From: Acetobacteraceae bacterium
GTDB taxonomy: Bacteria > Pseudomonadota > Alphaproteobacteria > Acetobacterales > Acetobacteraceae
Direction of reading: 5' to 3'
Assembly (NCBI GenBank): GCA_043742865.1
Contig: JAYTXR010000012.1
Location: 1 to 43,054 of the forward strand
DNA: 43,054 nucleotides
Shown one piece after another: positions 3,249 to 43,054 of the stretch (its first letter is position 1; every line of letters begins with the position of its first letter). Both the position numbers and the translations under genes were made by a program. The notes below the pieces were generated by a model. The model did not search any database, was not told the origin of the DNA, and worked only from the letters and a program-made list of their open reading frames with translations.

Positions 3249-3268
3249 CGGCCCCCGCCAAATGGGGG

Positions 3269-4591: not shown

Positions 4592-4600
4592 GGGATCCCC

Positions 4601-4636
4601 ACAAGAAAATGGCGCCGGTGTTGCCACCGGCGCCAT
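4601..4636 (-). terminator. Intrinsic terminator after the DUF35/thiolase operon
   Basis: Perfect 12-bp inverted repeat ATGGCGCCGGTG / CACCGGCGCCAT (4609-4620 and 4625-4636) with a 4-nt loop. On the minus-strand transcript it is followed by UUUCUUGU. Confidence 0.7.
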
Positions 4637-4660
4637 GCAATCGTCTCAGCCGGACAAGCC

Positions 4661-5059: not shown

Positions 5060-5064
5060 GTCGA

Positions 5065-7715: not shown

Positions 7716-7766
7716 GATCCGTTCCCCGATAGAACCCGCACAGGATGGAACAGGTTAAGCCTTTTA

Positions 7767-7847
7767 GAGCAGCCTCGCGGCTGCAGGCCTGTCGAGCAGC
7801 CTCGCGGCTGCGGGCCTTTCGCGCAACCCCGCGGCGGCCGGCCCGGG
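7767..7847. repeat. 27-bp tandem repeat (2 good copies plus 1 degenerate), each with an internal hairpin
   Basis: GAGCAGCCTCGCGGCTGCAGGCCTGTC (7767-7793), GAGCAGCCTCGCGGCTGCGGGCCTTTC (7794-7820), then a degenerate third copy. Each good unit contains the palindrome GCAGCC-TCGC-GGCTGC. Confidence 0.8.
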
Positions 7848-7975
7848 AACGCGTCGGTTTTTTGCCACAATCGACAATTATGAAAGATTCTGCTGCAACG
7901 TTGTGACGGTCGAGCGAATTCTCCGAACAGGACGTGATTACTGTCCCTACCTCAATCGAAAGGTGGCCTGAAGCC

Positions 7976-9031: not shown

Positions 9032-9146
9032 GTCGGGGGCCGCCTAAGTCGGGGGCCGCTCCGGCGCCGGAGCTGCCGCGTCCAGTTGCCCACGGCTTGT
9101 CCTTCGAATGCGGCATGCGCAAGATGGCCCTGCCCGAGGGCCCGAC

Positions 9147-27276: not shown

Positions 27277-27741
27277 TCATATTGGCAACGGTCCATCCTT
27301 TAGCCGCTCCATGGCAAAGCGGCTGGTAACGTTGCGCAGCTTCACTGCGACAATCAGCTTTCGGTAAAAATCATCATAAGCGGCGATATCCGCCACGACG
27401 ACATGCAGCAAATAATCCACATCCCCGCTCATTCGCCAGGCATCGACGATCTCCGGCATTCCGCCAACGACTGTGGCGAACCGTTCCAGCCAGTCGCTCG
27501 AATGATCCGCGGTCTCCACCTCCACGAATACCGAAACCGGCACGCCGATCTTGGCGGGATCGAGCACCGCGACCCGGCGAAGGATAATCCCATCCTGCTC
27601 CATACGCCGGATCCGCTTCCAACATGGTGTGGGGGTCAGGCCAACTTTTTCCGCCACCTCCGCCAATGACAGCGAGGCGTCCTCGGCCAGCAATCGCAGG
27701 ATCGCCCGATCCAACCGGTCAAGCAGTTTGTTGTCGGCCAT
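27277..27741 (-). CDS. Lrp/AsnC-family transcriptional regulator
   Basis: 154 aa. LDRLDRAILRLLAEDASLSLAEVAEKVGLTPTPCWKRIRRMEQDGII is the HTH, followed by an AsnC-type ligand domain. It is divergent from an efflux MFS gene across an AT-rich spacer. Confidence 0.9.
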   Translation of the reverse strand: MADNKLLDRLDRAILRLLAEDASLSLAEVAEKVGLTPTPCWKRIRRMEQDGIILRRVAVLDPAKIGVPVSVFVEVETADHSSDWLERFATVVGGMPEIVDAWRMSGDVDYLLHVVVADIAAYDDFYRKLIVAVKLRNVTSRFAMERLKDGPLPI

Positions 27742-28023
27742 ATAGGGGTTTTCCTTGCGTAAATTCGCTATTCAATAGATAGGCTTTACTCATTATGGCT
27801 AAAATGAATTGTAGAAAAGTATTTTTTTCTCCCGCCGCGCGTCCTTCCGCCAGCGTTCGCCTTGCCGGAGCGGTCGTTGCCCGTGCCCGCCAGCCTGATG
27901 TCACGGCCCCGATTTCATGCCCGGACTTCATCCCCTGGTCGCTGCCAGCCCCATCCGGCTACTGTTGCGCGCTTGACAATCCTGCACGGCGGCGAACCCC
28001 GCGAGCCCCCCAACGCCGCGGCC

Positions 28024-29475
28024 ATGCGCAGGCTTTTCTTTCACGTTTTCCCATCGATCATGCTGCCCGTGTTTCTCTCGGCGCTGGATCAGACCATCGT
28101 CTCGACGGCGCTGCCCGCCATTGCCGGTGCCCTCGGCAATGTCGAACAGATCTCGTGGATCGTCGTCGCCTACCTGCTGGCCAACACCATCGCCGCCCCC
28201 ATTTACGGCCGCCTCGGGGATGCACTGGGACGCAAGCGCATGCTCTACGTCGCGCTGGCGATCCTCATGACCGGCTCTCTGATCGGCGCAGCGGCGCCCA
28301 ATTTGTGGGTTTTGGTCCTCGCCCGGGTGTTGCAAGGCCTTGGCGGCGGCGGACTGATGACGTTGTCGCAGGCGCTGATCGGGGAGGCGGTGCCACCCCG
28401 CCAGCGCGGTCGTTATCAGGGGTATCTGGCCACCACATTTGTCACCGCCAGCACCTTCGGTCCCGTGGTTGGCGGTTATCTGACCGAGCATCTGGGCTGG
28501 CGCGCCGTGCTGCTGGTGAATATTCCGCTGGGCCTGCTGTCGATGTTGCTGGCGATCCGGTTGAAATCCCAATACCAGGGCGGTGGCCGGTTCAGCTTCG
28601 ACATCTGGGGCACGGTATTCTTCGCGCTCACCATCGTCCCCGGCCTGATCGCCTTGGAACAGGCACGCAAGCTGGATGCCCACGCATTGCCGCTGATCCT
28701 GCTGCTGCTCGTGATCGCCGCCGTCTCGCTGTTTGTGCTGATACGCCAGGAGCGCCGTGCCCCAACGCCGCTTCTGCCGGTCAATCTGTTGCGCGACCCC
28801 ACCATTCTTCGCAGCGATTTGATGGCGCTGTGCCTCGCCGGTGCGGTCGTCTCGATGATCACGTTTTTGCCGCTCTATTTGCAGGTTGCCCGCGGCGTCT
28901 CGCCTAGCGACACCGGAATGATGATGTTGCCGCTTACCGCCGGCATCGGCGTCGGCTCCATCTTCACCGGACGGATGATCGCACGTACCGGCCGCACCGC
29001 CATCTGGCCGTCCTTAGGGCTCGCGATCAGCGTGGCGATGCTGGTATTCCTGGCGATCCTGGCGCCGCAGCTTCCGGTGTCGGTACTCCCCTGGGCTTTC
29101 GCGGCTATCTCGATGAGCTTTGGCACCGGCATGCCGGTCGTGCAGATCACGGTCCAAACGATGGCCGGCCCGACATCGCTTGCCGCTGCCGCGGCTTCCG
29201 TGCAGATCTCCCGCTCGGTCGGCGCCGCCTTCGCCACGGCCGTTGTCGGCACAATCCTGTTCGCTGTCCTCGCCGCCAAGGACGCGCAGACGGCGGCGAT
29301 GTTCACCGAACTGATCCAGCACGGCCCGCCCATACTCGCAAACTTGGATCAGGTCCGTCGAGAGGCGGTGCAGACCGAGATCGCCGAAGCCTTCCAGGCT
29401 GCCTTTCTTACCATCGCCGGCTTCGCCACCGCCGCTCTGCTACTGGCCTGGAGCATACCGGTCCGGCGGCTATAG
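28024..29475 (+). CDS. MFS transporter, DHA2 (EmrB/QacA-type, 14-TMS) efflux family
   Basis: From the ATG at 28024: FPSIMLPVFLSALDQTIVSTALPAIAGALG, GRLGDALGRKR, LARVLQGLGGGGL. About 483 aa with 14 hydrophobic segments. Confidence 0.85.
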   Translation: MRRLFFHVFPSIMLPVFLSALDQTIVSTALPAIAGALGNVEQISWIVVAYLLANTIAAPIYGRLGDALGRKRMLYVALAILMTGSLIGAAAPNLWVLVLARVLQGLGGGGLMTLSQALIGEAVPPRQRGRYQGYLATTFVTASTFGPVVGGYLTEHLGWRAVLLVNIPLGLLSMLLAIRLKSQYQGGGRFSFDIWGTVFFALTIVPGLIALEQARKLDAHALPLILLLLVIAAVSLFVLIRQERRAPTPLLPVNLLRDPTILRSDLMALCLAGAVVSMITFLPLYLQVARGVSPSDTGMMMLPLTAGIGVGSIFTGRMIARTGRTAIWPSLGLAISVAMLVFLAILAPQLPVSVLPWAFAAISMSFGTGMPVVQITVQTMAGPTSLAAAAASVQISRSVGAAFATAVVGTILFAVLAAKDAQTAAMFTELIQHGPPILANLDQVRREAVQTEIAEAFQAAFLTIAGFATAALLLAWSIPVRRL

Positions 29476-29532: not shown

Positions 29533-31647
29533 CTAGGGAGCCGTTTCCGCCAATCCGGCGAGCCTTAACCCCTCAGCATAATGAAGCAGGTCCTCGGGCC
29601 GGGTCAGGGGGGATCGCGCCACCGCGTCGCGCACGCAGAATTTTGGTTCCAGAACCAACAACCGTTCCCGCAAGTTCTTCGCTTCGGTCAGCCGCCCCAG
29701 ATGGCCCAGCGCAGCCAAATGTCCTTTGTACGTCGATGAGAAGGTTGGGTTTAGCGCCAAAGCCCGGTTGCCGAGTCCGATCGCGAGATCATAGGACTGC
29801 AGCATCAGAAATGGCATCATCGCCGCCATATCGAAAAAGAACCCATGCGGATCGAACGGCGATAGCTTTCGCGCCTGCGCGATCCTCTCGATGGCTTCCT
29901 CATGCCTTCCCAGATAGGAAAGCGAGAGCCCCGAGAAACACCAGGCCAGCGCGAGATGCGGATTAACCGCCAACGCCTGCTCGTGCAACTGCAACCCTTC
30001 CTCGGCGTGCCGTCCGAGGAAGCAGCGAACGTGACCCGCGATTGTCAGGGCCCGGGCATCCGTCGGGTCGAGCCTCACGGCGCGTTCAGCCAGATCCCCC
30101 CCGAGCAGCGTTGCCGCCGCCACATCCTCTGCCCACCCCTGCCCAACCAGCAATAAATGCCAATAGGCATACCAGGCATGAGCCGAAGCATGGGTAGGAT
30201 CCAAGACGATTGCAGCTGCCAGCATCTCCCCGGCATCGTGAAATCCCTCCAGCTCAAGACGGTAGATCGCCGGAATGGCGCGCAGCAGCAGATGATCCGC
30301 ACTGGCGCCATCGCGCGGCAGGGAACGGGCCTTTTCCCCTTCGCGCACCAGCAATTCAGGATCCAGTTGGGCCACTGTCTCTGCCGCGATTTCTTCCTGT
30401 AGCGTCAGTAAGTCGGTCTCCTGGCGATCAAACCGCCTCGCCCAGATCACTTCCTCACCGGCATGCAGATCCAGCAATCGTATCATGACCCGCGCTCGGC
30501 CACGGCCACGCTGCACGGTTCCCTCCAGCAACAGATCCAAACCCAGCAACCGCCATGCCCCGCCCCCGCCAACCTGGCCCACGGCATTCTGCTGTGCCAG
30601 GGCACTCATGGAACTGGGGGCCACGCAAGAAAGCCAACTCAGCCGCGACAGGGTGTAGGTAATTTCCTCCGCCACTCCCAGCGACAATTCGTCCGTCTGG
30701 GAGGCGTCCAACATGCGCAGCGGCATTACGCCGATCCGCACCGGGCGATACCCGACGGAAACCGGAGCGAGGCCTGGCACCTGTGACGTCTTCGCCTGAT
30801 CGGCCGGCGGCCCGGGCCGGACGGAACGGATATCGGAAAAGACCTCTGCTGAACCCCGATTGCGGATGCTTGAAAGTATAGAAGCCGTCTCCTCCGAAGG
30901 AGCGAGTTGTGCCACTGCCGCCAGTGCATCGGCGCAACGTTCATAAGTGCTCACCGCAGCGGCCCGATCCCCCCTGGCTGCATGCACCCGGATCAAGACA
31001 CGCCAGGCGCCTTCATGCGCCCGGTCGATGGCGATCAGAAGTTCGGCCGCGCGGACCAAAGTCTCCATCCCCGCATCGGTCCCATCGGCCCCGGCCGTCT
31101 GGCAGGCAGCCAACCAGGCCTCCGCCCGGACGCGCGCCAATCCGGACAAAATTTCGGTCTGCGCTGCCCGCCAGCGGTCAAATGCCGGATCGATACCCGC
31201 CAGATCTTCGACCAGGGTCGGGCGGAACAATTCCAGCGCCTCGGGCCGGCTCACTCCGCCACGCGACAGCGCCTGGATGTCCACCTGCACAAGCTCGCTC
31301 AGCGATCGGCTTGCAGGCGCGTTTCCCAGGGAGAGATGGGTGCGATCCACCAGAAACAACGCCGGATCCATCCCGCCCAAAAGGTCACCTAGCTCGTGGA
31401 CGGCCTGACGCAGCGAGGCTCTGGCTTGCTCGCGCTCCCGTCGGCTCCACAGCAGTTCCGTCAACTCATCGCGTCTCACCGGTCTTCCGGCATTCAGCGC
31501 GAGCACCGCCAGCACTCCGCGCGTCTTGCGGCCTTTGGGCAGCAGGTTTGCTCCGTCCGGCCCACGCACGTCCATGGTCGAAAACAGTCTCACCCGCAGG
31601 AGCGGAAATCCCAGTTCAGGGACGGATACTCGGGGATCGCGTTCCAT
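29533..31647 (-). CDS. Large transcriptional regulator: N-terminal winged-helix (OmpR/SARP-type) DNA-binding domain plus central domain plus C-terminal TPR repeats
   Basis: The N-terminus LRVRLFSTMDVRGPDGANLLPKGRKTRGVLAVLALNAGRPVRRDELTELLWSRREREQARASLRQAVHEL is a SARP/trans_reg_C-type wHTH with a BTAD-like continuation. The C-terminal third has repeated TPR-like helices (AHAWYAYWHLL, ALTIAGHVRCFLGRHAEEGLQLHEQALAVNP, AWCFSGLSLSYLGRHEEAIERIAQARKLSP, YKGHLAALGHLGRLTEAKNLRERLL). Start is the ATG at 31647 or the TTG at 31677. Confidence 0.75.
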   Translation of the reverse strand: MERDPRVSVPELGFPLLRVRLFSTMDVRGPDGANLLPKGRKTRGVLAVLALNAGRPVRRDELTELLWSRREREQARASLRQAVHELGDLLGGMDPALFLVDRTHLSLGNAPASRSLSELVQVDIQALSRGGVSRPEALELFRPTLVEDLAGIDPAFDRWRAAQTEILSGLARVRAEAWLAACQTAGADGTDAGMETLVRAAELLIAIDRAHEGAWRVLIRVHAARGDRAAAVSTYERCADALAAVAQLAPSEETASILSSIRNRGSAEVFSDIRSVRPGPPADQAKTSQVPGLAPVSVGYRPVRIGVMPLRMLDASQTDELSLGVAEEITYTLSRLSWLSCVAPSSMSALAQQNAVGQVGGGGAWRLLGLDLLLEGTVQRGRGRARVMIRLLDLHAGEEVIWARRFDRQETDLLTLQEEIAAETVAQLDPELLVREGEKARSLPRDGASADHLLLRAIPAIYRLELEGFHDAGEMLAAAIVLDPTHASAHAWYAYWHLLLVGQGWAEDVAAATLLGGDLAERAVRLDPTDARALTIAGHVRCFLGRHAEEGLQLHEQALAVNPHLALAWCFSGLSLSYLGRHEEAIERIAQARKLSPFDPHGFFFDMAAMMPFLMLQSYDLAIGLGNRALALNPTFSSTYKGHLAALGHLGRLTEAKNLRERLLVLEPKFCVRDAVARSPLTRPEDLLHYAEGLRLAGLAETAP

Positions 31648-31775
31648 GTCGTCCAGCCAGCGCCTCCGATCGACCAACCCAGATGCGAGTTATTGAAAAT
31701 TGTATTCTGAATCACACTATCGTGAGTTCATCCAGTCCGCAATAATCCTTTGTAAACAGATATAGGAAAATTGTC

Positions 31776-31805
31776 TTGACGCGCGTTCCCGATCCATCCT
31801 AGGAT
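31776..31805 (+). promoter_or_regulatory. Candidate sigma70-type promoter upstream of the small peptide ORF
   Basis: TTGACG (31776-31781), an 18-nt spacer, then TAGGAT (31800-31805). The -10 element is embedded in the 10-bp palindrome ATCCTAGGAT (31796-31805), and GAAAATTGT abuts the -35. This is a sequence match only. Confidence 0.3.
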
Positions 31806-31986
31806 TAAACTGTCAACAGGCGTACTGCGCCCGCAGACTTTCCAACGCAAATTCATCCTCCGTCCCGACCGTCTCTGGGTAGTTTTGCCCGGCGCGCCAG
31901 GATAAGGCTGCCCATTTGCCGGCTGGAATGCGGCAACATCGGCAGGTCGCAAGTTGACAACCCCACATCGTCCGGAAGGATCTAAA

Positions 31987-32151
31987 ATGATGCAGGTTTC
32001 CTCGAATACCGCTCTGCCCAAGCCGACCAACGCGGACACCGTCGATAACGGTACCATTCACATCGGCGGCGGCTTTCGTCTTTCGCCGGTGGAAATCGCC
32101 GATAGCGCCCGCGTTCGCGTTGGCGGCGGCTTCCGCCTGCCTACCGCCTGA
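31987..32151 (+). CDS. 54-aa peptide with duplicated GGGFRL motif (candidate precursor or signalling peptide)
   Basis: GGAAGGA Shine-Dalgarno lies 6 nt upstream of the ATG at 31987. Translation: MMQVSSNTALPKPTNADTVDNGTIHIGGGFRLSPVEIADSARVRVGGGFRLPTA. It has no signal peptide or TM. A stem-loop follows, then a gene with its own strong RBS. Confidence 0.55.
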   Translation: MMQVSSNTALPKPTNADTVDNGTIHIGGGFRLSPVEIADSARVRVGGGFRLPTA

Positions 32152-32158
32152 CGATAAA

Positions 32159-32187
32159 GGCCAGGGGGAGCGAAGCTCCCCCTGGCC
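32159..32187 (+). terminator. Perfect 13-bp stem-loop directly after the peptide ORF (attenuator or partial terminator)
   Basis: GGCCAGGGGGAGC-GAA-GCTCCCCCTGGCC, starting 8 nt after the TGA. No clear U-tract follows (GCCTCTCGTGGGTGTTC). Confidence 0.55.
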
Positions 32188-32232
32188 GCCTCTCGTGGGT
32201 GTTCAATCCGGCCCAAACCAGGAGACCCGGTT

Positions 32233-33009
32233 ATGCCTCAGAACCTTTCCGTCAGAGCCGCCTGCGGTGCGCCGGTCGTCCACTTCCACCGACTGATCGA
32301 ACAGGCACGTGTGCCGATCCGCGCCGACCGGTCCGCTGCCGGAACGCTGCCGGCACGCGCCCTGCGATACTGCGAAGCCGTCACTTCCGCCGCCGGCTTT
32401 GGATGGTGGGTGTTTCCGCCGATCGATCTGACGCTGATGTGGGACGGCGACTCGATTTTCTGGCTTTACCAGGATGAATGGCTGGCGCTGACCACCGCAC
32501 AGTTTCCAGGCTTTTCCCGCGCATTCGATGCCGCGGCCCCGGCCGACCTGGCCGGTTGCGCGCCGCCCTTCCTCACCGTGTTGCCGGAACCGGGCACCTT
32601 GCAAATTTGGACCGGCCTGATCGCGCGCACGGCTCCGGACTGGAGTTTGCTGATCCGTCCTCCAGCCAACCTGGCGCTGCAAGGTGGCTATGCCCTTTAT
32701 GAAGGCATTGTCGAGGCCGACCGCTGGTTCGGACCGCTGTTTACCAATCTGCGCTTTACCCGCAGCCACACGCCTGTTCGCCTCACCGCGGACTTTCCCC
32801 TGGCCCAGGTCCAGCCGATTCCCCGCCACGCCTATAGTGACACAACCCTTGCGTCCATCGCTCTGACCCCCACGCTCGCCGCCCTCTCTTCGGCTGAATG
32901 GGATTCGTATCGGGTGAGTATCGCTGAACCCAGCTCTCGGCCCAACCGTCCTTTTGGCGCCTACGCGACCGAGACCCGAAAACGCCGCCGCGGCTTGTGC
33001 CCGGTCTGA
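32233..33009 (+). CDS. 258-aa protein of unknown function (possibly DUF6065-like)
   Basis: AGGAGA lies 7 nt upstream of the ATG. The N-terminal stretch ARALRYCEAVTSAAGFGWWVFPPIDLTLMWDG resembles the R-x-C-x-P/A-x3-A-x3-GW-x-[IV]-x2-P-x-D/F...W signature I associate from memory with DUF6065 proteins (unverified). It has no TM, no signal peptide and no recognisable cofactor motif. Confidence 0.65.
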   Translation: MPQNLSVRAACGAPVVHFHRLIEQARVPIRADRSAAGTLPARALRYCEAVTSAAGFGWWVFPPIDLTLMWDGDSIFWLYQDEWLALTTAQFPGFSRAFDAAAPADLAGCAPPFLTVLPEPGTLQIWTGLIARTAPDWSLLIRPPANLALQGGYALYEGIVEADRWFGPLFTNLRFTRSHTPVRLTADFPLAQVQPIPRHAYSDTTLASIALTPTLAALSSAEWDSYRVSIAEPSSRPNRPFGAYATETRKRRRGLCPV

Positions 33010-33048
33010 TCGACTTGCGCGAATAAGCCTGGCCGCGAGGAAATACCG

Positions 33049-33591
33049 TCAGCTTGGCATCAGGCTCAGGCAACGGCCCTTGCGGCCGGCGGAGAACAGA
33101 AATTCGACAAGTTCTCCGATCGCGGGCAGGCGCCGACACGCGACGACCCCGGTCAAACGGAGGATTTCCTCCACCGCTTGCGCCGCGCCCAACAGGCTCG
33201 GGTCGTCGCCGGTCAGAACCAGAACGGGAAGGGTTCGGTCATGCTCGGCCACGATTTTCATGACGTGACAGCCATCCTGTCCGGGGCTGTCCAACTCGCA
33301 GAACACCGCCATGGGCCTCTGCGCTTTCAGCAGCGGGGCCAGATCACGGTGGCTGGTAACCTGTTCGAGTTCGATGCCAAGAAATTCACAAATTGTCTGT
33401 AGTCCAGGCGAAAAGCGTATCTGGTCCTCTACTGCCAGCACCAGCGGTTCGCGCCGGACCGGCCCGGCAAATTCAGTGCTCCCGTCCAGGCCTCCGCCGA
33501 CGCGCCTGGCGGCCATCGGTTGCGGATCGGGTTCGATATTCCTCCAGAAAACCGTGTCTTCCCAGCAGGAATTCTTGATCACCTGTCCCAT
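33049..33591 (-). CDS. Stand-alone receiver (REC)-like protein with N-terminal extension, atypical
   Basis: 180 aa. LVLAVEDQ is the beta1 acidic pair, as ED. AVFCELDSPGQDG places an Asp at the phospho-acceptor position. PVLVLTGDD carries the conserved Thr. The usual Lys-Pro of beta5 is replaced by RRLP. There is no output domain. Confidence 0.55.
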   Translation of the reverse strand: MGQVIKNSCWEDTVFWRNIEPDPQPMAARRVGGGLDGSTEFAGPVRREPLVLAVEDQIRFSPGLQTICEFLGIELEQVTSHRDLAPLLKAQRPMAVFCELDSPGQDGCHVMKIVAEHDRTLPVLVLTGDDPSLLGAAQAVEEILRLTGVVACRRLPAIGELVEFLFSAGRKGRCLSLMPS

Positions 33592-33748
33592 GGCATTCCC
33601 CGACGATTAGTAGTCCACGACCGGCCGGACCCTTTGCAGTGGTTCGCCGGACAGGGTCAGTATCAGGGATAGTTAATCTTTATTAAAGATTTCAACCTTA
33701 AGTTATGCCGTTAGATTTATGGATTTTTCCGTGAAAAGCCGTTAATTA

Positions 33749-34204
33749 TTATCCTCTCGTTAATTTCACGGTCCATCGGCACCGTCCGGATACCAGATTT
33801 CCTTCAATCGCGTCCGAACCATCGGACAAATCGATCACCCGGGCGTGAAACAGAATCGTCAGCATCTTCTTATCTCCGCCTGCCCGTTCCTGGGAAGGTT
33901 CAAACGCGTTATCGGGGCCGAGCTTGCCCCGGATGGTCACGGTGTTCTGAAACGGCGCGAAGCCGAAGCCGCCACGTCCAACACTCATCAAGCCGGTCGT
34001 CGTGCTCCCGCATCCGGGCCCATCCGGCGCCACCGGGCCCACCCATCGCCCTTCGACGCCGCCAAGACCCACGACGCGCCCGGATTGCAGTATCGCCGCC
34101 GGATCGGAACTGGCGCACCCGAAAACCAGAAGGGGGAGGGCGATCTGAAGGCCATAAGAAAAAAAACTGATAAAAGGAATTTTTCCCTTGACCAACCGCC
34201 CCAT
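33749..34204 (-). CDS. Predicted lipoprotein, unknown function
   Basis: 151 aa from the ATG at 34204. MGRLVKGKIPFISFFSYGLQIALPLLVFGCASS is a signal peptide with the lipobox VFGC. The longer track ORF (to 34372) would overlap the phage small-terminase gene. Confidence 0.5.
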   Translation of the reverse strand: MGRLVKGKIPFISFFSYGLQIALPLLVFGCASSDPAAILQSGRVVGLGGVEGRWVGPVAPDGPGCGSTTTGLMSVGRGGFGFAPFQNTVTIRGKLGPDNAFEPSQERAGGDKKMLTILFHARVIDLSDGSDAIEGNLVSGRCRWTVKLTRG

Positions 34205-34217
34205 AAAATCGTATATA
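34188..34217 (+). promoter_or_regulatory. Candidate promoter at the left edge of the phage structural module
   Basis: TTGACC (34188-34193), an 18-nt spacer, then TATATA (34212-34217), in an AT-rich patch. It is very close to the ATG at 34221, so either the mRNA is nearly leaderless or the true start or promoter differs. Confidence 0.25.
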
Positions 34218-34220
34218 TCT

Positions 34221-34595
34221 ATGCATGATGCAGACACGCGCACAACACCGCGCAAAACTGCAACTTCCCCCATCTCGTCCATCCAAGACCCCACACCGCT
34301 CGACATTCTGCTGACGACCATGCGGCAGAAATGGTCAGGCGGCGATCCCGTTGGCGCCGCGGCAATCGCCAAGATCGTCGCTCCCTATATCCACTCACGT
34401 CCAATCCATTCACGCCCAGTCCACACGCGTACAGTCCATTCACGTCCGGTCCATTCAAGCCGGGCAACCACCGGCAATCTTTCCGAAACCCAAACGGAAC
34501 TGCACCGACTGACCGATGACGAACTCGCAATCAGACTGGCGTCAGCTCACCGGGGAGCAGAAGACCCGCCAGACGATCCGCACCAGCCTGACTGA
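34221..34595 (+). CDS. Phage terminase small-subunit-like protein
   Basis: It lies directly upstream of, and overlaps, the large terminase gene. TPLDILLTTMRQKW...AAAIAKIVAPYIHSR resembles the conserved segment (..PLEFLL.VMRD......AA.AAAPY.H..) of small proteins that precede TerL in alphaproteobacterial phages (from memory). It contains an HSRPx pentapeptide repeat. Confidence 0.5.
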   Translation: MHDADTRTTPRKTATSPISSIQDPTPLDILLTTMRQKWSGGDPVGAAAIAKIVAPYIHSRPIHSRPVHTRTVHSRPVHSSRATTGNLSETQTELHRLTDDELAIRLASAHRGAEDPPDDPHQPD

Positions 34596-35931
34596 TTGGG
34601 CTTGCGTCGCCCTGGACCCGTTAGGGCAGTCTCCCGCCGCCCATCATCACCTGTTGATCTCCGAGCTGGAAAAAATCGCCACCGGGCTAAACGACCGCCT
34701 GATGCTGCTGCTGCCGCCCGGCAGCGCCAAATCAACCTATGCGTCCGTCCTGTTCCCAGCCTGGTGGTTCACCCAGCACGCCCAAAGCTCGGTCATCGCG
34801 GCCTCCCACACCGCGGACCTCGCCCATCATTTTGGCCGTCAGGTTCGGGATCTGGTCACCGCGCAGGGCGAACGGCTCGGCTACACCCTGGCCCAGCACA
34901 GCCGGGCGGCCGGACGGTGGCGCACCTCCCTCGGGGGTGAGTATTTCGCGGTCGGGATCCGCGGGCCGGTCACCGGCCGCCGGGCTGACCTCGCCATCAT
35001 CGACGATCCCATTAAATCGCACGCGGAGGCAGACAGCGCAAACCAGCGGGACCTGCTTTGGAACTGGTACCGTGCGGATCTGATCACCCGACTGAAGCCG
35101 GGTGGGCGCATCGTGCTGATCATGACCCGGTGGCACGAAGACGATCTGGGCGGGCGGTTGCTGTCGCATCAAAAAGGGCAGTGGCGCGTCCTCCGCCTTC
35201 CCGCCCTGGCCGAACCGAATGACCCGCTCAACCGTCCCGAAGGCGCACCGCTTTGGCCGGATTGGGAAAGTGCTGAAGCGCTCGATCGCAAGCGCGCCAC
35301 TGTGGGCGAGCGGGTCTGGTCGGCGATGTATCAGCAGACCCCTCGGCCCGCCCATGGCAGCCTGTTCATGATCCGGCCTATCGAGATCGCCGACCAGCCG
35401 CCGCTATCGGGCCGCTCGGTCCGGGCCTGGGATCTCGCCGCCACGCCCAAGCGGCCCGACAACAACCCGGACTGGACCGTCGGCGTTAAGTTGCACCGAA
35501 CCGACTCCCAGCACTTCACGGTCACCGATGTTATCCGCCTGCAAGGCAGTCCGCACCAGGTAGAGGAAGCCATCCTCCACACCGCCAAACTGGATGGCCG
35601 CCCGGTCACCATCTCCCTACCGAAGGACCCCGGCTCCGCCGGCGGTTTCGTCGCCAGTTATCTTGCCGGGCAGCTGGCAGGATACAACCTGGTCATCACA
35701 TCCGAAACCGGCTCGAAAGCCTCTCGCGCCGCCCCTGTGGCGGCACAGATCGAAGCCGGCAATGTCTCCATCGTTCGCGCCACATGGAACCATGCCTTCC
35801 TGGAAGAACTTCGAGACTTTCCGTACGGCATCAAGGACGATCAGGTAGATGCCTTGTCACGCGCCTTCGCCGCCCTGATCGAACAGGGTGCTCCGGCTCG
35901 CCGGATGACCGTGCCCTTCCTCGCCCGTTAG
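34516..35931 (+). CDS. terL: Phage terminase large subunit
   Basis: 471 aa. LLLPPGSAKSTYASVLFPAWWF is Walker A-like. ADLAIIDDP is Walker B. LIMTRWHEDDLGGRL is the coupling motif. A C-terminal nuclease-type region includes DDQVDALSRAF. Confidence 0.9.
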   Translation: MTNSQSDWRQLTGEQKTRQTIRTSLTDWACVALDPLGQSPAAHHHLLISELEKIATGLNDRLMLLLPPGSAKSTYASVLFPAWWFTQHAQSSVIAASHTADLAHHFGRQVRDLVTAQGERLGYTLAQHSRAAGRWRTSLGGEYFAVGIRGPVTGRRADLAIIDDPIKSHAEADSANQRDLLWNWYRADLITRLKPGGRIVLIMTRWHEDDLGGRLLSHQKGQWRVLRLPALAEPNDPLNRPEGAPLWPDWESAEALDRKRATVGERVWSAMYQQTPRPAHGSLFMIRPIEIADQPPLSGRSVRAWDLAATPKRPDNNPDWTVGVKLHRTDSQHFTVTDVIRLQGSPHQVEEAILHTAKLDGRPVTISLPKDPGSAGGFVASYLAGQLAGYNLVITSETGSKASRAAPVAAQIEAGNVSIVRATWNHAFLEELRDFPYGIKDDQVDALSRAFAALIEQGAPARRMTVPFLAR

Positions 35932-35938
35932 GACCTGC

Positions 35939-37357
35939 ATGTTTGAAACCATTTGCGACCTGATCCCCCAGGATCGGGACTACCCGCCGCGCGCGCGCGT
36001 GCTGGACATCCTCAAACGCGTCCTGAATGGCACTTTCTATGACGTGCTGCCCAACCAGTTTCATGAAGAAAGAGGTCCTGGCGGAGACTACATTCCGCTG
36101 CGCAACCGCCGCCCATCGGTCCGGTATGCCCTCTCGCGGATCGTCGTCGAGGACAGTGTCGCGCTGTTGTTCAGTGAGGGACATTTCCCGACCATCGACT
36201 GCGCCGACCGGACGATCCGTGCCGCATTGGCCGACATTGCCAAGGAGACGCGGCTCAACCAAATCATGACCGAGGCAGCGATCCGCGGCTCGATCGGCTC
36301 GGTCGCCATCCTGATGCGCGTGCTCCGCGGCCGTATCTTCTTCGAGGTTCTCGATACCACCTGGCTTAATCCAATCTGGGACCCGGAGGCACCCGACACG
36401 CTGAAGGCCGTTACCGAGCGTTATAAGGTGGCGGGACGTTTCCTCGCCGCCACCAGCTACGATATCGGCGACCCCAGCGTCGATTATTGGTTTTCCCGCA
36501 GTTGGGACAGTGGCGGCGAAACCTGGCTGCTGCCGCAACCGGTTGGGAATGATGGCCCGCCTGAGATAGACACCGAACGAAGCGTCCGCCACGGGCTTGG
36601 CTTTGTCCCCATCGTCTGGATAAGGAACCTCCCCGGATTTTCGGCGACCGCCGATCCGAATGACGGCGCGTGCACATTCCGCAGCGCCATCGAGACGCAA
36701 ATTGAAATCGACTACCAGCTCAGCCAGGCCGGCCGCGGCCTGAAATACAGTTCCGATCCCACATTGCTGATCAAGGAACCGGCAACCGCCGATACCGAGA
36801 TCGTCAAGGGTGCCGGCAATGCATTGGTTGTCAGTGAAAAAGGTGATGCCAAGCTGCTGGAAATCGGCGGTACGGCGTCGGCCGCGGTCATCGACTATGT
36901 CCGCACCTTGCGCGAATTCGCACTTGAAAGCGTGCACGGCAACCGGGCCAGCGCGGATCGCCTGAACGCGGCGCAATCGGGGCGGGCGCTGGAGCTGATG
37001 AACCAGGGCCTGATCTGGCTCGCCGACAATCTTCGAGTCAGCTACGGCGAGGGTGCGTTGCTGCAGCTCGCCCGCATGGTCTTGCGGGCGTCCAATACCT
37101 ATCGTTTACAGGTATTGGGCAATGAGATTTCAACGCTCGACCCGGCCGCACGGTTAACGTTGAAATGGCCCCGCTGGTATCCCCCTACGGCGGAGGATCG
37201 TCAGCGGGACGCGCAGACCCTCGCCACGCTCGCCGCCTCCGGACAGATTTCTCGTGAAACGGCCGTCAAGTCGATCGCCGATATCTACGATATCGAGGAT
37301 GTGCCGGCCGAGCTCGCCCGCATATCCGCATCCCGAAAACCGCTCAGGAAGGCCTAA
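35939..37357 (+). CDS. Putative phage portal protein
   Basis: 472 aa, immediately after terL and before the scaffold and capsid genes. Both size and position are canonical. No specific family motif was recognised by eye. Confidence 0.6.
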   Translation: MFETICDLIPQDRDYPPRARVLDILKRVLNGTFYDVLPNQFHEERGPGGDYIPLRNRRPSVRYALSRIVVEDSVALLFSEGHFPTIDCADRTIRAALADIAKETRLNQIMTEAAIRGSIGSVAILMRVLRGRIFFEVLDTTWLNPIWDPEAPDTLKAVTERYKVAGRFLAATSYDIGDPSVDYWFSRSWDSGGETWLLPQPVGNDGPPEIDTERSVRHGLGFVPIVWIRNLPGFSATADPNDGACTFRSAIETQIEIDYQLSQAGRGLKYSSDPTLLIKEPATADTEIVKGAGNALVVSEKGDAKLLEIGGTASAAVIDYVRTLREFALESVHGNRASADRLNAAQSGRALELMNQGLIWLADNLRVSYGEGALLQLARMVLRASNTYRLQVLGNEISTLDPAARLTLKWPRWYPPTAEDRQRDAQTLATLAASGQISRETAVKSIADIYDIEDVPAELARISASRKPLRKA

Positions 37358-37764
37358 TGACAGTCACAGAACAGCCACCGGACGAGCCTGACCCTCTCGC
37401 GCAATTGCGTGCCCGCGCGGATGCGCTGGAACATCTGCTTGCCGCGACCCAGGCAGAAACGGAAGCTCGCCTGGTTCGTGCGGAGCTCAAGGCCGAGGCG
37501 ATCCGCGCCGGTATGGTGGATCTCGACGGACTGAAGCTGCTTGATTTTTCCCGTTTGAAACTATCGAAATCCGGGGAGTTAGACGACGCCGGAACGATCA
37601 TGTCCAAGTTCCGGCAAGCTAAGCCCTGGCTGTTCGGCGCGGCGTCCTCCTCATCGCCCGCCACGGCGCCGCCGGCCCAGCCGCCCCGCAAGAAATTGGC
37701 AACCGAAATGACGGATGCCGAATACCGAGCCGCCCGCGCGGACCTCGTCAAACGTCGAAGCTGA
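37357..37764 (+). CDS. Putative phage scaffolding protein
   Basis: 135 aa. It is a charged helical protein (LAQLRARADALEHLLAATQAETEARLVRAELKAEAIRAG) between the portal and major capsid genes. Its ATG overlaps the portal TAA by 1 nt. Confidence 0.55.
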   Translation: MTVTEQPPDEPDPLAQLRARADALEHLLAATQAETEARLVRAELKAEAIRAGMVDLDGLKLLDFSRLKLSKSGELDDAGTIMSKFRQAKPWLFGAASSSSPATAPPAQPPRKKLATEMTDAEYRAARADLVKRRS

Positions 37765-37798
37765 ACTCCCCATAATCTGAGTTAGAGGAACAATCCGC

Positions 37799-39121
37799 AT
37801 GGGTATTCAAAACTTCCCCGCCGCGCTCCAGCCGATCATCCAGCAAGGCTTCCTGGAACGTGAATTTCAACAGGCGCTGCATTCCCGTCTCGGGTACCGC
37901 GCCGTCGCCGATCGTGAAGACATCGCCGTGGGGATAGGTGAAACCCTCACCAAGACCCGCGCCGGGCTCAAGCCCAGCGTCACAATCCCGCTGCCGCCGG
38001 CCACCAACACCAATCTCGACAACGGCCTGACACCGACAACCTGGGGGGTCGAGCAGTACACGCTGACCATCAACCACTACGCCGCAACCACCGACCTCAA
38101 TATGGTTACGTCCCGGGTCGGCATCGCCAGTCAATTTCTGCAAAATGCTTTCATTAATGGCGAGCAGGCAGCCCGTTCGCTGGATGAACTGGCACGCAAT
38201 GCCTTGTTCGCGTCGTATTTCGGCGGCAATAGTCGGGTACGTAGCACGCTCAGTGTGGCCGGCCCCAGCGTCAACGTCGACGATATCCGTGGCTTCCAGA
38301 ACGTGTTCATCAACGGCGTCCAAACGCCGGTCAGCACCGCGGCGTCGCTCACCGTCACCATCGGCGCCAATCCGTACACGCTGACCGGAACGGCGGCCGA
38401 TGCCGCCAATCTGTCCACCACGCCGGGCGGCATCTCGGGCGTGCTGACCTTGGCTGCCGCGGTTGCAGTTTCCGACGGCACCGCCGGCACCGCCGTCACC
38501 GCGGCCAATGCCTCGGTGATTGTGCGGCCATTCAGCCGTTCGAACACCACCAACCTGATCGCCGGCGATACGCTGACGATGTCCAACCTACTCGACGCGG
38601 TCGCCAAGCTACGCCTGAATGCCGTTCCCGAGATCGATGGGGTCTATAATTGCTATCTTGACCCGGTCTCCGCCCGCCAGTTGTTCGCCGACAATGATTT
38701 CCGCCAGCTGTTTCAGGGCGCTACGTCCGCGAACCAGGTCTTTCGTCAGGGCATGGTCAATGATTTCCTGGGCTTGCGGTTCATTCCCACCACGGAAGCC
38801 TATGTCCAGCCGCATCCGACGCTTGCTGGCTTGATGGTCCGCCGCCCGATCGTCTGCGGCCAGGGCGCGCTGATCGAAGGCGACTTCGCTGGCATGGCGG
38901 AAGATGATATCGCCCCCAGCGACAGCATCGTCTCGTTGGTTGATGGTGTGGCGATGGTGACGCGTGAACCGATCGACCGGCTGCAGCAGATCATTGCCCA
39001 GTCCTGGTACTGGATCGGCGGCTTCTGCGCCCCGTCCGACACCACGACCAATCCGGCGACGATCCCAACCGCCACCAACGCCGCCTTCAAACGCGCGGTG
39101 ATGATCGAACACGTCGGCTGA
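37799..39121 (+). CDS. Putative phage major capsid protein
   Basis: 440 aa with AGAGGA upstream of the ATG. Position after the scaffold gene, the size, and an Ala/Thr/Gly-rich composition are typical of major capsid proteins. Confidence 0.6.
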   Translation: MGIQNFPAALQPIIQQGFLEREFQQALHSRLGYRAVADREDIAVGIGETLTKTRAGLKPSVTIPLPPATNTNLDNGLTPTTWGVEQYTLTINHYAATTDLNMVTSRVGIASQFLQNAFINGEQAARSLDELARNALFASYFGGNSRVRSTLSVAGPSVNVDDIRGFQNVFINGVQTPVSTAASLTVTIGANPYTLTGTAADAANLSTTPGGISGVLTLAAAVAVSDGTAGTAVTAANASVIVRPFSRSNTTNLIAGDTLTMSNLLDAVAKLRLNAVPEIDGVYNCYLDPVSARQLFADNDFRQLFQGATSANQVFRQGMVNDFLGLRFIPTTEAYVQPHPTLAGLMVRRPIVCGQGALIEGDFAGMAEDDIAPSDSIVSLVDGVAMVTREPIDRLQQIIAQSWYWIGGFCAPSDTTTNPATIPTATNAAFKRAVMIEHVG

Positions 39122-39195
39122 TAGCCACGAACGGATCGATAACCAACGGCGCGGCAACGCGCCAGCCTCCCATCTGCCAAAGGACCGGCCCGCCG

Positions 39196-39576
39196 ATGTC
39201 TCTCACCGATGCCGAAAAGACCGACGCGCGCCGGTTCTGTGGCTATCCCGCTTACGGTGCGGGGGCGGCAGGATTTCAGAACTGGAGGTTCTATCAAGCC
39301 TATGGCCTGCTCGAATTTCGTCTCAACAACCTGGCCGATGCCGAACTTGCCGTGTTGCGCGGCTATCTGAACACCCTGCTCGGCCTGGAGGCAGCGATCC
39401 CGAACGCCGCCGCCAACCTCGATACCGACCAAGCCGCGGTATGGACTCGAAATCGCAATGAAACTGCGGACAGGGCGGCACTGTTTGACGATTGGCGCCG
39501 CCGCCTCTGTGGCTTCCTCGGGATGCCGGCGGGGCCTGGGCTTGCCTCCGGCGGCTCCGTGACCTTGGTCGTATAG
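39196..39576 (+). CDS. Phage hypothetical protein (head-associated position)
   Basis: 126 aa. The codon usage looks coding and it lies in the same-strand phage module. Confidence 0.5.
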   Translation: MSLTDAEKTDARRFCGYPAYGAGAAGFQNWRFYQAYGLLEFRLNNLADAELAVLRGYLNTLLGLEAAIPNAAANLDTDQAAVWTRNRNETADRAALFDDWRRRLCGFLGMPAGPGLASGGSVTLVV

Positions 39577-40235
39577 TGGATCGATCTCATCTGCAGGACC
39601 GCATCAGCTGGGGTCTGAACGTCGCCGCCCGCCACATCGGCCGCAGCACCGACGCCTATCGTGCAAATGACTGCGTAGACGCCCTGTCACCGGCCAATCG
39701 CTTCCTGAAGCTGCAGGCAGCCTTCAGCGCGCCCGACGGCAAGTTTGTTCGCCCCAGCGGCTACGGCAATCCGCTCTGGTATGGGGTTTTCGACAATGCC
39801 TACACGCAGCCGGGTGACTACCTGGTACAAGACGCTGAGATCTGGTTTGTTGTCGCCCAACAGCCGTTGCTGCCGGTGCTGTGCGTTCAGACCAATCGCA
39901 CGGTCAGCTTTGCCCGACCCGCCTCGCCCAACGCGATCGGCCTCAATGCGTATGGGGGCGTTTCTGCCCAGACCGCCGAGACATTGATCCGTGACTTTCC
40001 AGCCAGCGTTCTTGGCACCTCTGGTTCCAGCCATCCCGCCGCCAGCCTGCCGGGCGACACCTCCATCGGCTACTGGACCGTGCTGCTCCCAGCGGTATCA
40101 GCACCGGATGGCACACTCGTCATTCTGCGGCAGGCCGATCTCATGACCGACGAGCTTGGCCGGACCGGCGTTGTCGCCGGCGCCGAGCTGACGGATCTCG
40201 GCTGGCGGCTCAACGTGAAGCAGGCAACCACCTGA
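39576..40235 (+). CDS. Phage hypothetical protein
   Basis: The GTG at 39576 overlaps the preceding TAG by 1 nt. 219 aa. The track ORF start at 39492 would overlap the previous gene by 85 nt. Confidence 0.45.
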   Translation: MDRSHLQDRISWGLNVAARHIGRSTDAYRANDCVDALSPANRFLKLQAAFSAPDGKFVRPSGYGNPLWYGVFDNAYTQPGDYLVQDAEIWFVVAQQPLLPVLCVQTNRTVSFARPASPNAIGLNAYGGVSAQTAETLIRDFPASVLGTSGSSHPAASLPGDTSIGYWTVLLPAVSAPDGTLVILRQADLMTDELGRTGVVAGAELTDLGWRLNVKQATT

Positions 40236-41044
40236 TGGCCGATCAGTCGGATGTAGAAAATGCCCTCGCCGCTCTGGTCGCTGCCGCGCTGTATCCAAGG
40301 GGTCCGGATGCACCCAGCCTTCCGGGCCCTTCCTGCCGCGTCTATCGCGGCTGGCCGAACCCGGCAGCGCTCGATGCCGATCTGGCGATGGGACACGTCA
40401 ACGTCACAATCTTCGCCGGCGATGCCGCGCCCCGCCTGACCACGCGCTTTGCCGAGGAATTTCTATCGACACCGGTCACGCCGACCCTGCAGGCGTCGGT
40501 GTCAGGCTCGTCGGTTGCCTTCACCGGGAGCGCCGATCCTGGCCAACTCGCCGGCGTCCTTGTCGATGGCCAGCCTTACGTCTATCGAACACTGTCCAAC
40601 GATACCTCCGCTTTGGTTGCGGCAACGATCGGCTCGCTGATCCGTGCCACGCGTATCGTTCATCTCCACGACGCGACGCTCGATATATACGGTGCCCACA
40701 CCGTTGCCGCACGCGTTGTGGCGTTCCGCTCCGTGCTCCAGGAAATCCGTCGTCAACGCCTGAGGATCCGCGTCAGCTGTTGGTGCCCCAGCCCAACTTC
40801 ACGCGATGCCACGGCGGCGTCGATCGACGCCGCTTTCGCATCCACGCGCTTCGTGACTCTGGCGGATAATTCTCAGGCCTGGCTCACCTTTGCCGGCGGT
40901 GCGGTGTTCGATCAGTCCGAAAACGCCTCGCTCTATCGCCGCGACCTTCGCTATGCGGTCGAATACGCCACCACGCTCAGTCAATCTCAGCCGGAAATGC
41001 TGTTCGGCGCCCTCGGCGTGAACGCTCTTCACATCACCGCATAG
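40235..41044 (+). CDS. Phage hypothetical protein
   Basis: 269 aa. Its ATG overlaps the preceding TGA as ATGA-type coupling at 40233-40237. Confidence 0.5.
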   Translation: MADQSDVENALAALVAAALYPRGPDAPSLPGPSCRVYRGWPNPAALDADLAMGHVNVTIFAGDAAPRLTTRFAEEFLSTPVTPTLQASVSGSSVAFTGSADPGQLAGVLVDGQPYVYRTLSNDTSALVAATIGSLIRATRIVHLHDATLDIYGAHTVAARVVAFRSVLQEIRRQRLRIRVSCWCPSPTSRDATAASIDAAFASTRFVTLADNSQAWLTFAGGAVFDQSENASLYRRDLRYAVEYATTLSQSQPEMLFGALGVNALHITA

Positions 41045-41057
41045 ATATGGAGACACG

Positions 41058-41210
41058 ATGAACGTTCATTTGGTCGTCGTGCGGCCGTTTGCCGGCCTCG
41101 CGCGCGGCGTATCCGTTACCGATACGGCTCGGATCGAGCAAATTCTCAACAGCGAGCATGCCGACAAGGTCGTCAAGGTCTGCTCGCGTGCGCCTGAAAA
41201 GGAGTCCTGA
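41058..41210 (+). CDS. Small phage protein (50 aa), not in the supplied ORF track
   Basis: The ATG at 41058 is preceded by GGAGA. Translation: MNVHLVVVRPFAGLARGVSVTDTARIEQILNSEHADKVVKVCSRAPEKES. The stop is at 41208-41210, and AAGGAG of the sheath gene RBS lies inside its 3' end. It exactly fills the gap between two phage genes. Confidence 0.5.
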   Translation: MNVHLVVVRPFAGLARGVSVTDTARIEQILNSEHADKVVKVCSRAPEKES

Positions 41211-41215
41211 TACCC

Positions 41216-42775: not shown

Positions 42776-42799
42776 CGGCACCCGCGACAGGATTATCGA

Positions 42800-43054
42800 A
42801 TGGCAACCAACAACTTCTCCCTGGGTCGCGACACCCAGCTGGTCCTGATGGGCCCGGCCGGGCGTGTCGACCTCGCGCACGTTACCGGTTTTGAGAGCAG
42901 CCAGCTTACGCTGCCGGTCCGCGTCGACCGGCTGGACGGCACGCAGATGTCGGCCGAGCTGCCAAAAGGCTGGCATGGCAGCTTCGATATCGAGCGTGGC
43001 AATTCCGCGGTCGACGACTTCATCGCCACCGCGGAACAATCCTACTTCAACGGC
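42800..43054 (+). CDS. Phage tail tube protein (3' truncated by window end)
   Basis: MATNNFSLGRDTQLVLMGPAGRVDLAHVTGFESSQLTLPV... The position directly after the sheath gene is canonical for the tube protein. The ORF runs off the window. Confidence 0.6.
   Translation, partial: MATNNFSLGRDTQLVLMGPAGRVDLAHVTGFESSQLTLPVRVDRLDGTQMSAELPKGWHGSFDIERGNSAVDDFIATAEQSYFNG

Follow-up and report, generated by a model that had tools for sequence, protein, structure and literature searches.

The stretch of DNA analysed here, called the window throughout, comprises the whole of positions 1-43,054 of contig JAYTXR010000012.1 (forward strand) from Acetobacteraceae bacterium, assembly GCA_043742865.1. It contains, next to a phage cluster, a regulator gene (REG) divergent from a short peptide gene (PEP), an enzyme gene of the DUF6065 family, a receiver-type gene (REC) and a lipoprotein gene. 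REG, PEP and DUF6065 are a real conserved functional neighbourhood, REC co-occurs with them, and the resulting cassette has the appearance of a so far undescribed system for peptide-based signalling or for making a natural product, rather than of phage cargo. The five open reading frames (ORFs), which an earlier reading of the letters alone (the sequence-only reading) had described as one compact unit, were all present in the ORF list at the coordinates it gave:

29533-31677, minus strand: REG, 714 aa, SARP-type winged helix-turn-helix (wHTH) and BTAD, TolB_N-like region, tetratricopeptide repeats (TPR)
31987-32151, plus strand: PEP, 54 aa, with two core units
32233-33009, plus strand: DUF6065 protein, 258 aa (PF19541, E 1.6e-13)
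33049-33591, minus strand: REC, 180 aa, Response_reg
33749-34204, minus strand: lipoprotein, 151 aa, at the junction with the phage cluster

The AT-richer spacers pointed out in the same reading were also found, with GC fractions of 0.495 (31600-31899), 0.45 (33600-33799) and 0.51 (34100-34299) in surroundings of about 0.60-0.69, and the module itself was ordinary in GC. Pfam held no family for PEP or the lipoprotein, and NCBIfam, PADLOC and PHROGs gave no match for PEP, the DUF6065 protein or the lipoprotein. No tRNA genes were found within the window.

Conservation of the peptide, enzyme and sensor genes

Based on a DUF6065 profile scan of one genome per species, 205 relatives were identified. 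The counts given below refer to the best 80 loci, all from Acetobacteraceae-type metagenome-assembled genomes (MAGs) and isolates, including Rhodopila and Acidisphaera, and neighbouring genes were counted by tblastn with the window proteins. A peptide carrying the PEP motif lay upstream of DUF6065 in 77 of the 80 loci, a homologue of the REG sensor adjoined DUF6065 in 74, and REC was directly downstream of the enzyme gene, and convergent with it, in 39. The lipoprotein and the large terminase TerL were found in the same 16 loci. Regulator, peptide and enzyme were hence co-conserved in related loci, which is the comparison that the sequence-only reading had proposed as a check. Its five-gene unit held for REG, PEP, DUF6065 and REC, which co-occur, and failed for the lipoprotein, which tracks the phage junction and not the module. 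That reading had not noticed the tandem repeats of the peptide, the dUTPase-like fold of the enzyme, the replacement of Asp by Glu in REC or how much more widely the peptide-DUF6065 pair is distributed.

Two layouts were recognized. Type A, the one present in the window, consists of REG (minus strand), often a YeiH-like gene (plus), PEP (plus), DUF6065 (plus) and REC (minus), and is also carried by the cultured Acidisphaera sp. S103 (L069). Type B shows a BT1/MFS gene (plus), PEP (plus) and DUF6065 (plus), followed by a convergent gene for a protein of 860-935 aa whose tblastn match is limited to REG residues ~261-711. One cassette of each type is carried by 12 MAGs, and their peptide cores differ (L004-L076), which suggests two orthogonal signalling channels per genome. 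In most layouts the peptide gene adjoins one for a transporter, PF03601 being found at 29 loci and BT1 at 16, with the YeiH-like (PF03601) or BT1/MFS gene being directly upstream of the peptide in loci other than that of the window. No further biosynthetic genes were present in the cassettes of the Acetobacteraceae loci.

The peptide gene is preceded by a Shine-Dalgarno sequence (GGAAGGA) 6 nt upstream, and its two units correspond to a direct repeat of 48 nt (32034-32081 and 32091-32138) with 71% identity. The relevant features are:

32044-32085, plus strand: PEP unit 1, residues D20-S33
32101-32142, plus strand: PEP unit 2, residues D39-P52
32159-32187, plus strand: perfect 13-bp GC-rich stem-loop between the PEP stop codon and DUF6065

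A logo of 126 units reads [PAV]-x-[TVI]-[AT]-D-[TAS]-G-[RK]-I-[RS]-[LF]-G-[GA]-G-X-R-L-P, where D, G7 and R are invariant and X is hypervariable (F, Y, C, W, M and others). Among the 77 loci with a motif ORF, the peptides contain from 1 to 8 tandem core units and the longest reach 235-257 aa. Many synonymous codons are used for the invariant residues, and the summed entropies at codon positions 1, 2 and 3 were 8.2, 8.0 and 18.8; since the third-position entropy is more than twice that of the other two, PEP is translated and under purifying selection at the protein level. A profile search returned 186 called PEP homologues, all of them annotated as "hypothetical" and none with a Pfam family. 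No signal sequence or hydrophobic segment was found in PEP (maximum KD19 0.43). The core subtype follows the type of sensor, with RLGGG[FYW] accompanying the SARP form and [RS]FGA[GA][CYM] the hybrid histidine kinase form described below.

Six distant loci, with DUF6065 proteins 32-33% identical to that of the window, were examined beyond the Acetobacteraceae, four in Gammaproteobacteria (Pseudomonas putida L180, Xenorhabdus khoisanae L181, Vibrio mediterranei L183 and Pectobacterium aquaticum L185) and two in other Alphaproteobacteria (Mesorhizobium sp. M0644 L182 and Salinarimonas L184). All six have a collinear ORF of 28-33 aa, such as MKIVISSSIPAVTSNGVQVRSTGGGSAK, located 65-82 nt upstream of DUF6065 and provided with a Shine-Dalgarno sequence, and all six show a hairpin between both genes (z<-2 in four). 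The small ORFs align without internal gaps to the single-unit peptides of Acetobacteraceae (MK..S....P followed by A.T[DS].G....G.G). The occurrence of the peptide-DUF6065 pair in these distant loci indicates that the pair is ancient.

In the distant loci other than that of Mesorhizobium, DUF6065 is followed by a partner protein of ~336-342 aa and an MFS transporter (5 of 6 loci). The partner has weak NTP_transf_5 matches and, without variation, the motif GxRxDID, which is of the nucleotidyltransferase type; genes resembling nucleotide kinases were also seen near distant cassettes. The Pseudomonas, Vibrio and Pectobacterium cassettes are divergent from a phosphonate set (phosphoenolpyruvate mutase, PHP, cupins, AA kinase, HMGL-like), and that of Xenorhabdus adjoins ATP-grasp, DegT and thymidylate-kinase genes. 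A published study on Pectobacterium phosphonates does not cover the cassette genes. At the Mesorhizobium locus (2834-9665), genes for YcaO, a Guanylate_cyc-TPR protein, a second sensor fragment, a small peptide, DUF6065 and an EamA transporter occur together; the Guanylate_cyc-TPR gene is 3.4 kb from the peptide-DUF6065 pair and the second sensor fragment is right upstream of the peptide. The TPR sensor was seen only at alphaproteobacterial loci.

Two explanations that deny the peptide a role of its own can be weighed at this point. The first takes the genes for unrelated neighbours and the peptide ORF for a spurious one, as GC-rich DNA yields many chance ORFs and Pfam and NCBIfam are blank for PEP. 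Synteny in 74-77 of the 80 loci and in every distant one, together with the coding signature and the called homologues of the peptide, leaves this explanation hardly credible and, as far as sequence comparison can tell, refuted. The second considers PEP a cis-acting leader peptide without its own function, whose translation would attenuate DUF6065 in conjunction with the hairpin. Indeed, PEP is a short ORF with a good Shine-Dalgarno sequence directly upstream of DUF6065, in 40 of 78 loci the peptide stop codon is followed by a strong stem-loop (z<-2) whose sequence is unrelated between loci, and at many loci the intervening hairpin is terminator-like, in some with T-runs. However, the 14-residue motif is conserved as amino acids across very divergent DNA, it has been tandemly amplified up to 8 times and its subtype tracks the sensor type; besides, no alternative anti-terminator pairing was evident in a search that was not exhaustive. 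Attenuation as the sole role of PEP appears quite improbable to us.

The DUF6065 enzyme, the sensor-regulator and REC

The DUF6065 family comprises 2638 matches in a collection clustered at 90% and 944 clusters at 50% identity, and no mention of DUF6065, of PF19541 or of a dUTPase-like protein with a precursor peptide was found in the literature searched. Built on 24 close homologues, an AlphaFold2 model reached only pLDDT 69 with marginal fold matches, whereas the model from a more diverse alignment of 87 sequences was confident (pLDDT 94.9, pTM 0.88). With the latter model, the 50 best Foldseek matches listed against the PDB were all trimeric dUTPases and 99 matches had E<=1e-3; the dUTPase structures matched with E down to 3.4e-6, TM (target) up to 0.75 and 12-14% identity. 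We are confident, on the basis of this model, that DUF6065 adopts a dUTPase-like beta-barrel fold with extra helices. By sequence, DUF6065 found nothing in a profile search of the PDB, no Pfam dUTPase match appeared at E<=10 and the five dUTPase motifs, which include the catalytic Asp and the C-terminal P-loop-like arm, were not recognizable. Family-wide conserved residues are C47, G57, Q124, G128, R142, N146, E157, E161, D163, P189 and Y244, and conserved loops lie at residues 30-56 and 146-165. DUF6065 would be a peptide-modifying or peptide-binding enzyme.

Three other identities of DUF6065 were considered and rejected: membership of the dUTPase family, as the hhalign comparison was not significant and only the fold is shared; a papain-like Cys-His-Asn protease, as no His is conserved family-wide; and nucleotide-depleting anti-phage defence, which had no PADLOC hit and against which the multi-copy, sensor-bearing cassettes argue. 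In BFVD, uncharacterised phage proteins similar in size ranked first, and viral dUTPases came next. A0A6J5MPI8 and others, from Caudovirales and of ~230 aa, matched better than dUTPases (E 8e-10, TM 0.53-0.59), so that a DUF6065-like fold also exists in phages. One DUF6065 relative, P0244 (452 aa), has an extra N-terminal domain of ~200 residues that may be HD-like by its look; if so, it would be another hint of nucleotide or phosphoester chemistry.

REG can be divided in two parts:

30862-31605, minus strand: DNA-binding output of REG, residues ~25-272 (profile positions 25-272 correspond to EmbR residues 8-271)
29536-30810, minus strand: putative sensor module of REG, residues 290-714, TolB_N-like and TPR

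The assignment of REG as a SARP, made before from the letters alone, was sustained by a profile of 24 REG homologues, which matched EmbR (2fez) over wHTH and BTAD with E 6.6e-12. In the single-sequence Pfam search of REG, Trans_reg_C and BTAD remained below the cut-off, TolB_N was weak and TPR was clear, and BTAD was matched in 20 of the 24 homologues (best E 4e-11). The profile of the TPR part matched TPRs of the OGT/Hop/CHIP type, that is, of the peptide-binding type, and no NB-ARC or AAA domain was found in REG with Pfam or NCBIfam. According to Pfam, the convergent protein of type B is a HisKA-HATPase-REC hybrid kinase (935 aa) with the REG-type module at its C-terminus. The C-terminus of the Mesorhizobium Guanylate_cyc-TPR protein is 27% identical, end to end, to the C-terminal 425 residues of REG (E 2e-28). 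The SARP form of the module is placed upstream and divergent, and the hybrid histidine kinase form downstream and convergent.

That one sensor module is coupled to three kinds of output, in each case next to a peptide-DUF6065 pair, is what chiefly leads us to think that the module perceives a product of the pair. The sequence-only reading had compared REG and PEP with the logic of the RRNPP receptors. This logic gains support, as the TPR-bearing sensor, mounted on a SARP, a hybrid histidine kinase or a cyclase, always stands beside peptide and DUF6065. The system is not an RRNPP member, because a winged helix takes the place of the XRE-type HTH and because PEP lacks a signal sequence.

The same data can be read as a natural-product cluster in which REG is a pathway-specific activator only. 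REG would then answer an unrelated cue and its TPR would never see the peptide, PEP would be a scaffold or precursor, DUF6065 a biosynthetic or self-resistance enzyme, and the product would be antibiotic-like and exported. REG is SARP-like, and SARPs classically activate biosynthetic clusters; transporters are adjacent to cassettes, and the distant cassettes are found beside phosphoenolpyruvate mutase, ATP-grasp, aminotransferase and MFS genes without the TPR sensor. Nevertheless, a hybrid histidine kinase or a cyclase bearing the same sensor is a signal-relay output and not a pathway activator, the subtype of the peptide core co-varies with the type of sensor, and the Acetobacteraceae loci are devoid of further biosynthetic genes. 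We consider this explanation unlikely.

Concerning REC, its Response_reg match (32.8 bits, cut-off 30.2) was accompanied by matches to the PDB receivers 3t6k and 8svz. The lack of the beta5 Lys noticed in the sequence-only reading was correct, this position reading A-C-R, and the phospho-acceptor position is occupied by Glu (E99, nt 33295-33297). Among relatives, the acceptor residue varies between D, E and A and the Lys position is occupied by K or R, so that phosphorylation is not kept throughout. Conservation within REC is highest in the C-terminal tail, FLFxAGRxxGCMRLxP (33049-33100; alignment of 37 loci). The tail is loosely like the peptide core (G-x-x-R-L-P) and could, from its sequence, serve the same TPR module or enzyme as a second ligand.

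The DNA between REG and PEP contains putative regulatory elements:

31678-31986, no strand: divergent REG/PEP control region, AT-rich, putative function

In a three-way alignment with the closest relatives, L001 and L002, three blocks were kept in both: ATCACACTATCGTGA (31711-31725), GGAAAATTGTCTTGACGCG (31765-31783), with a -35-like TTGACG inside, and GGCGTACTGCG (31819-31829). From their conservation, they are candidate operator and promoter elements. One of the three is palindromic (ATCACnCTATCGTGA). SARPs bind direct heptameric repeats at the -35 of their target promoters. A promoter-like arrangement, TTGACG-18-TAGGAT, was located at 31776-31805, and a 12-nt direct repeat (31695/31766) overlaps the -35-like TTGACG, its upstream copy not being kept in L001 or L002.

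The phage cluster and other neighbouring genes

Two further genes flank the module:

34516-35931, plus strand: large terminase TerL (Terminase_6N/6C, PHROG 38), context only
27862-29475, plus strand: MFS transporter, 537 aa (MFS_1, E 1.7e-52), tail to tail with REG

The phage cluster starting at 34516 encodes terminase, portal, major head and tail sheath proteins (34516-43054), and no integrase was seen within the window. The TerL junction is kept in 16 species-level genomes and 15 IMG/VR contigs, three loci retaining only an N-terminal TerL remnant, and among the 447 IMG/VR stretches that match the sheath, the best 80 show 76-89% identity to it. A gene transfer agent of the RcGTA type was rejected, as the cluster encodes a tail sheath and thus a contractile-tailed (myovirus-type) build, which the RcGTA particle is not known to have. 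An ORF of 135 aa (34188-34595) with tandem HSRP(I/V) repeats overlaps the TerL start and has no PHROG match; it may be a small terminase or spurious.

The lipoprotein has one N-terminal hydrophobic segment followed by a conserved lipobox Cys, and its reading frame was confirmed by the variability of codon positions (0.20/0.16/0.41). It was accompanied by TerL or a TerL remnant in 16 of 16 loci and never found otherwise among the 80, it was present in 13 of the 15 IMG/VR contigs carrying both DUF6065 and TerL, and 5 related phage clusters in other contexts lacked it. The lipoprotein gene is real, lies outside the conserved module and follows the phage junction.

These observations bear on the proposal, also raised in the sequence-only reading, that the five genes are cargo (morons) carried by the neighbouring prophage. 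The terminase directly adjoins the locus, the order DUF6065-REC-lipoprotein-TerL is kept in 16 genome loci, and IMG/VR provirus calls take in DUF6065 at the contig edge. Yet REG, PEP, DUF6065 and REC occur free of phage in many loci beside the same left flank of amino-acid ABC transporter genes, which is common to loci with and without the phage cluster; in the phage-free loci REC is followed by SH3_4, DsrE-like, MoeB-like and QueC-like genes. Type B cassettes have no phage context either, and related phage clusters exist without the module, only the lipoprotein tracking the junction. Phage cargo is therefore largely refuted for four of the five genes and very improbable as an account of the locus. 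The island behaviour that had been envisaged along with it did not stand, in view of the shared flank and the ordinary GC. On comparison of the sequences, the four-gene module appears to be chromosomal and vertically inherited, and the phage cluster a neighbour of it in one clade. As a warning for annotation, provirus callers take in these host genes at the edges of prophage predictions.

On the other side of REG, the MFS gene ends 58 nt from the REG 3' end, and a gene for an Lrp/AsnC regulator (27277-27741) is divergent from it. The MFS-REG adjacency was retained in L001 and L047 only, and the Lrp/AsnC gene in L001 only. The MFS protein is a possible exporter for the cassette, by a weak link.

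Proposed function and comparison with known systems

We propose that REG-PEP-DUF6065-REC is a chromosomal, vertically inherited cassette made of a ribosomal peptide, its modifying enzyme and a cognate sensor, a reading to which we give a probability of about one half. PEP would be produced as a cytoplasmic precursor of 54 aa with two copies of the conserved Gly-rich core, and owing to the stem-loop before DUF6065 the peptide transcripts should outnumber those of the enzyme. DUF6065 would bind the PEP core and modify or process it, and its dUTPase-like fold suggests that the chemistry could be nucleotide-derived. The TolB_N-like/TPR module of REG may be the cognate receptor for the peptide or its product, and REG, through its SARP-type winged helix, would control the divergent PEP-DUF6065 promoter. 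REC would act as a phosphorylation-independent adaptor or partner. Transport of the product across the membrane probably falls to a neighbouring transporter, a link that is weak in this window. What the comparison establishes is the co-occurrence of the genes, the translation of PEP, the fold of DUF6065, the domain architectures and the independence from the phage, whereas the substrate relationship, the chemistry, the ligand of the TPR module and autoregulation are inferences.

Several observations weigh against this proposal. The 80 loci are phylogenetically related and their counts overstate the number of independent observations, and TPR-cyclase genes are abundant in rhizobia, so that the adjacency in Mesorhizobium could be due to chance. 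The hhalign comparison of DUF6065 with E. coli Dut gave E 0.12 in the motif-3 region only; as sequence similarity to dUTPase is not significant, it is only the fold that points to nucleotide chemistry. DUF6065 matches no known enzyme family of ribosomally synthesized and post-translationally modified peptides (RiPPs), PF19541 being its sole match in the library scans, which gave no RRE either. All four proteins are predicted to be cytoplasmic without transmembrane segments, PEP has no export signal, and the sole nearby transporter in the window is on the far side of REG and pairs more simply with the Lrp/AsnC regulator. Finally, no conserved operator was found across loci when exact 7-mers were compared in 39 REG-proximal intergenic regions, none being above background.

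A broader, more tentative view, which we consider unlikely, joins all these elements. DUF6065 would found a new class of ribosomal-peptide-modifying enzymes whose dUTPase-like site attaches or exploits a nucleotide-derived group on the core ([ST]-[DS]-x-G...G-x-G), and the TolB_N-like/TPR module would be a proteobacterial intracellular peptide receptor, analogous to those of RRNPP and plugged into transcription-factor, histidine-kinase and cyclase outputs. The Acetobacteraceae would have two orthogonal channels (A and B), and the Gammaproteobacteria would use the pair inside phosphonate/nucleotide natural-product clusters.

Apart from a few cases, little has been charted of peptide-based signalling and RiPP chemistry in Proteobacteria, and the cassette offers the first testable functional context for DUF6065. 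It provides a candidate substrate (the 14-residue core) and a candidate receptor domain, and its three types of output act as natural "domain-swap" controls. If DUF6065 modifies the peptide, it would represent a new RiPP class on an unexpected fold, and if the TPR module binds the peptide, it would be a Gram-negative counterpart of the RRNPP receptors.

The RRNPP systems (Rap/NprR/PlcR/PrgX/Rgg) and the arbitrium AimR-AimP system of Bacillota also place a cytoplasmic TPR receptor with a DNA-binding domain beside a peptide gene, and paralogous receptor-peptide pairs with distinct peptides likewise coexist in one genome. The cassette differs from them in having a SARP winged helix and BTAD instead of an XRE-type HTH (no HTH_3), a tandem-repeat peptide without a signal sequence, no Opp genes in the module, a dedicated enzyme that is always present, a proteobacterial host and a sensor that is also carried by a histidine kinase and a cyclase. 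With the Rgg/SHP RaS-RiPP operons (streptide) and other RiPPs it shares a small precursor gene, a stem-loop and a modifying-enzyme gene, a TPR-type regulator also adjoins the operon, and some precursors are multi-core. The mark of a RiPP locus, a short precursor co-conserved beside a candidate enzyme, was found in 77 of 80 loci and in 6 of 6 distant ones. Unlike in known RiPP clusters, the enzyme is not a radical SAM, YcaO, LanM, MNIO or other known RiPP protein but DUF6065 with its dUTPase-like fold, and neither a protease nor a PCAT exporter is included in the cassette. Among Proteobacteria, the RaxX-RaxST-RaxABC system of Xanthomonas with RaxH/RaxR also joins a ribosomal peptide to an enzyme that modifies it, an exporter and a two-component sensor; it employs a tyrosine sulfotransferase and a PCAT exporter, and its peptide, enzyme and sensor families are unrelated to those of the cassette.

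The actinomycete SARPs (EmbR, AfsR, ActII-ORF4) have a homologous wHTH and BTAD, and their genes can similarly be divergent beside a putative target operon. REG, in contrast, belongs to an alphaproteobacterium, lacks the NB-ARC ATPase or FHA domain and has a TolB_N-like and TPR C-terminus that is shared with kinases and cyclases. As for the trimeric dUTPase/dCTP deaminase superfamily, the core beta-barrel fold is common and the DUF6065 loop EGIVEaDrWfGPL loosely parallels motif 3, whereas DUF6065 is about twice as large, with extra helices, and its nearly invariant Cys47 and invariant Asn146 are family-specific. Microcin C-type peptide-nucleotide antibiotics offer an analogy: there, too, a short ribosomal peptide goes with one or more enzymes that handle nucleotides and with export by an MFS protein. 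In the distant cassettes there is also a nucleotidyltransferase-like partner, but no MccB/ThiF-like adenylating enzyme is present and the peptides are longer and Gly-rich. By analogy, the cassette would resemble RRNPP systems, Rgg-controlled RiPP operons and SARP-controlled clusters in its logic, while being built from uncharacterised families.

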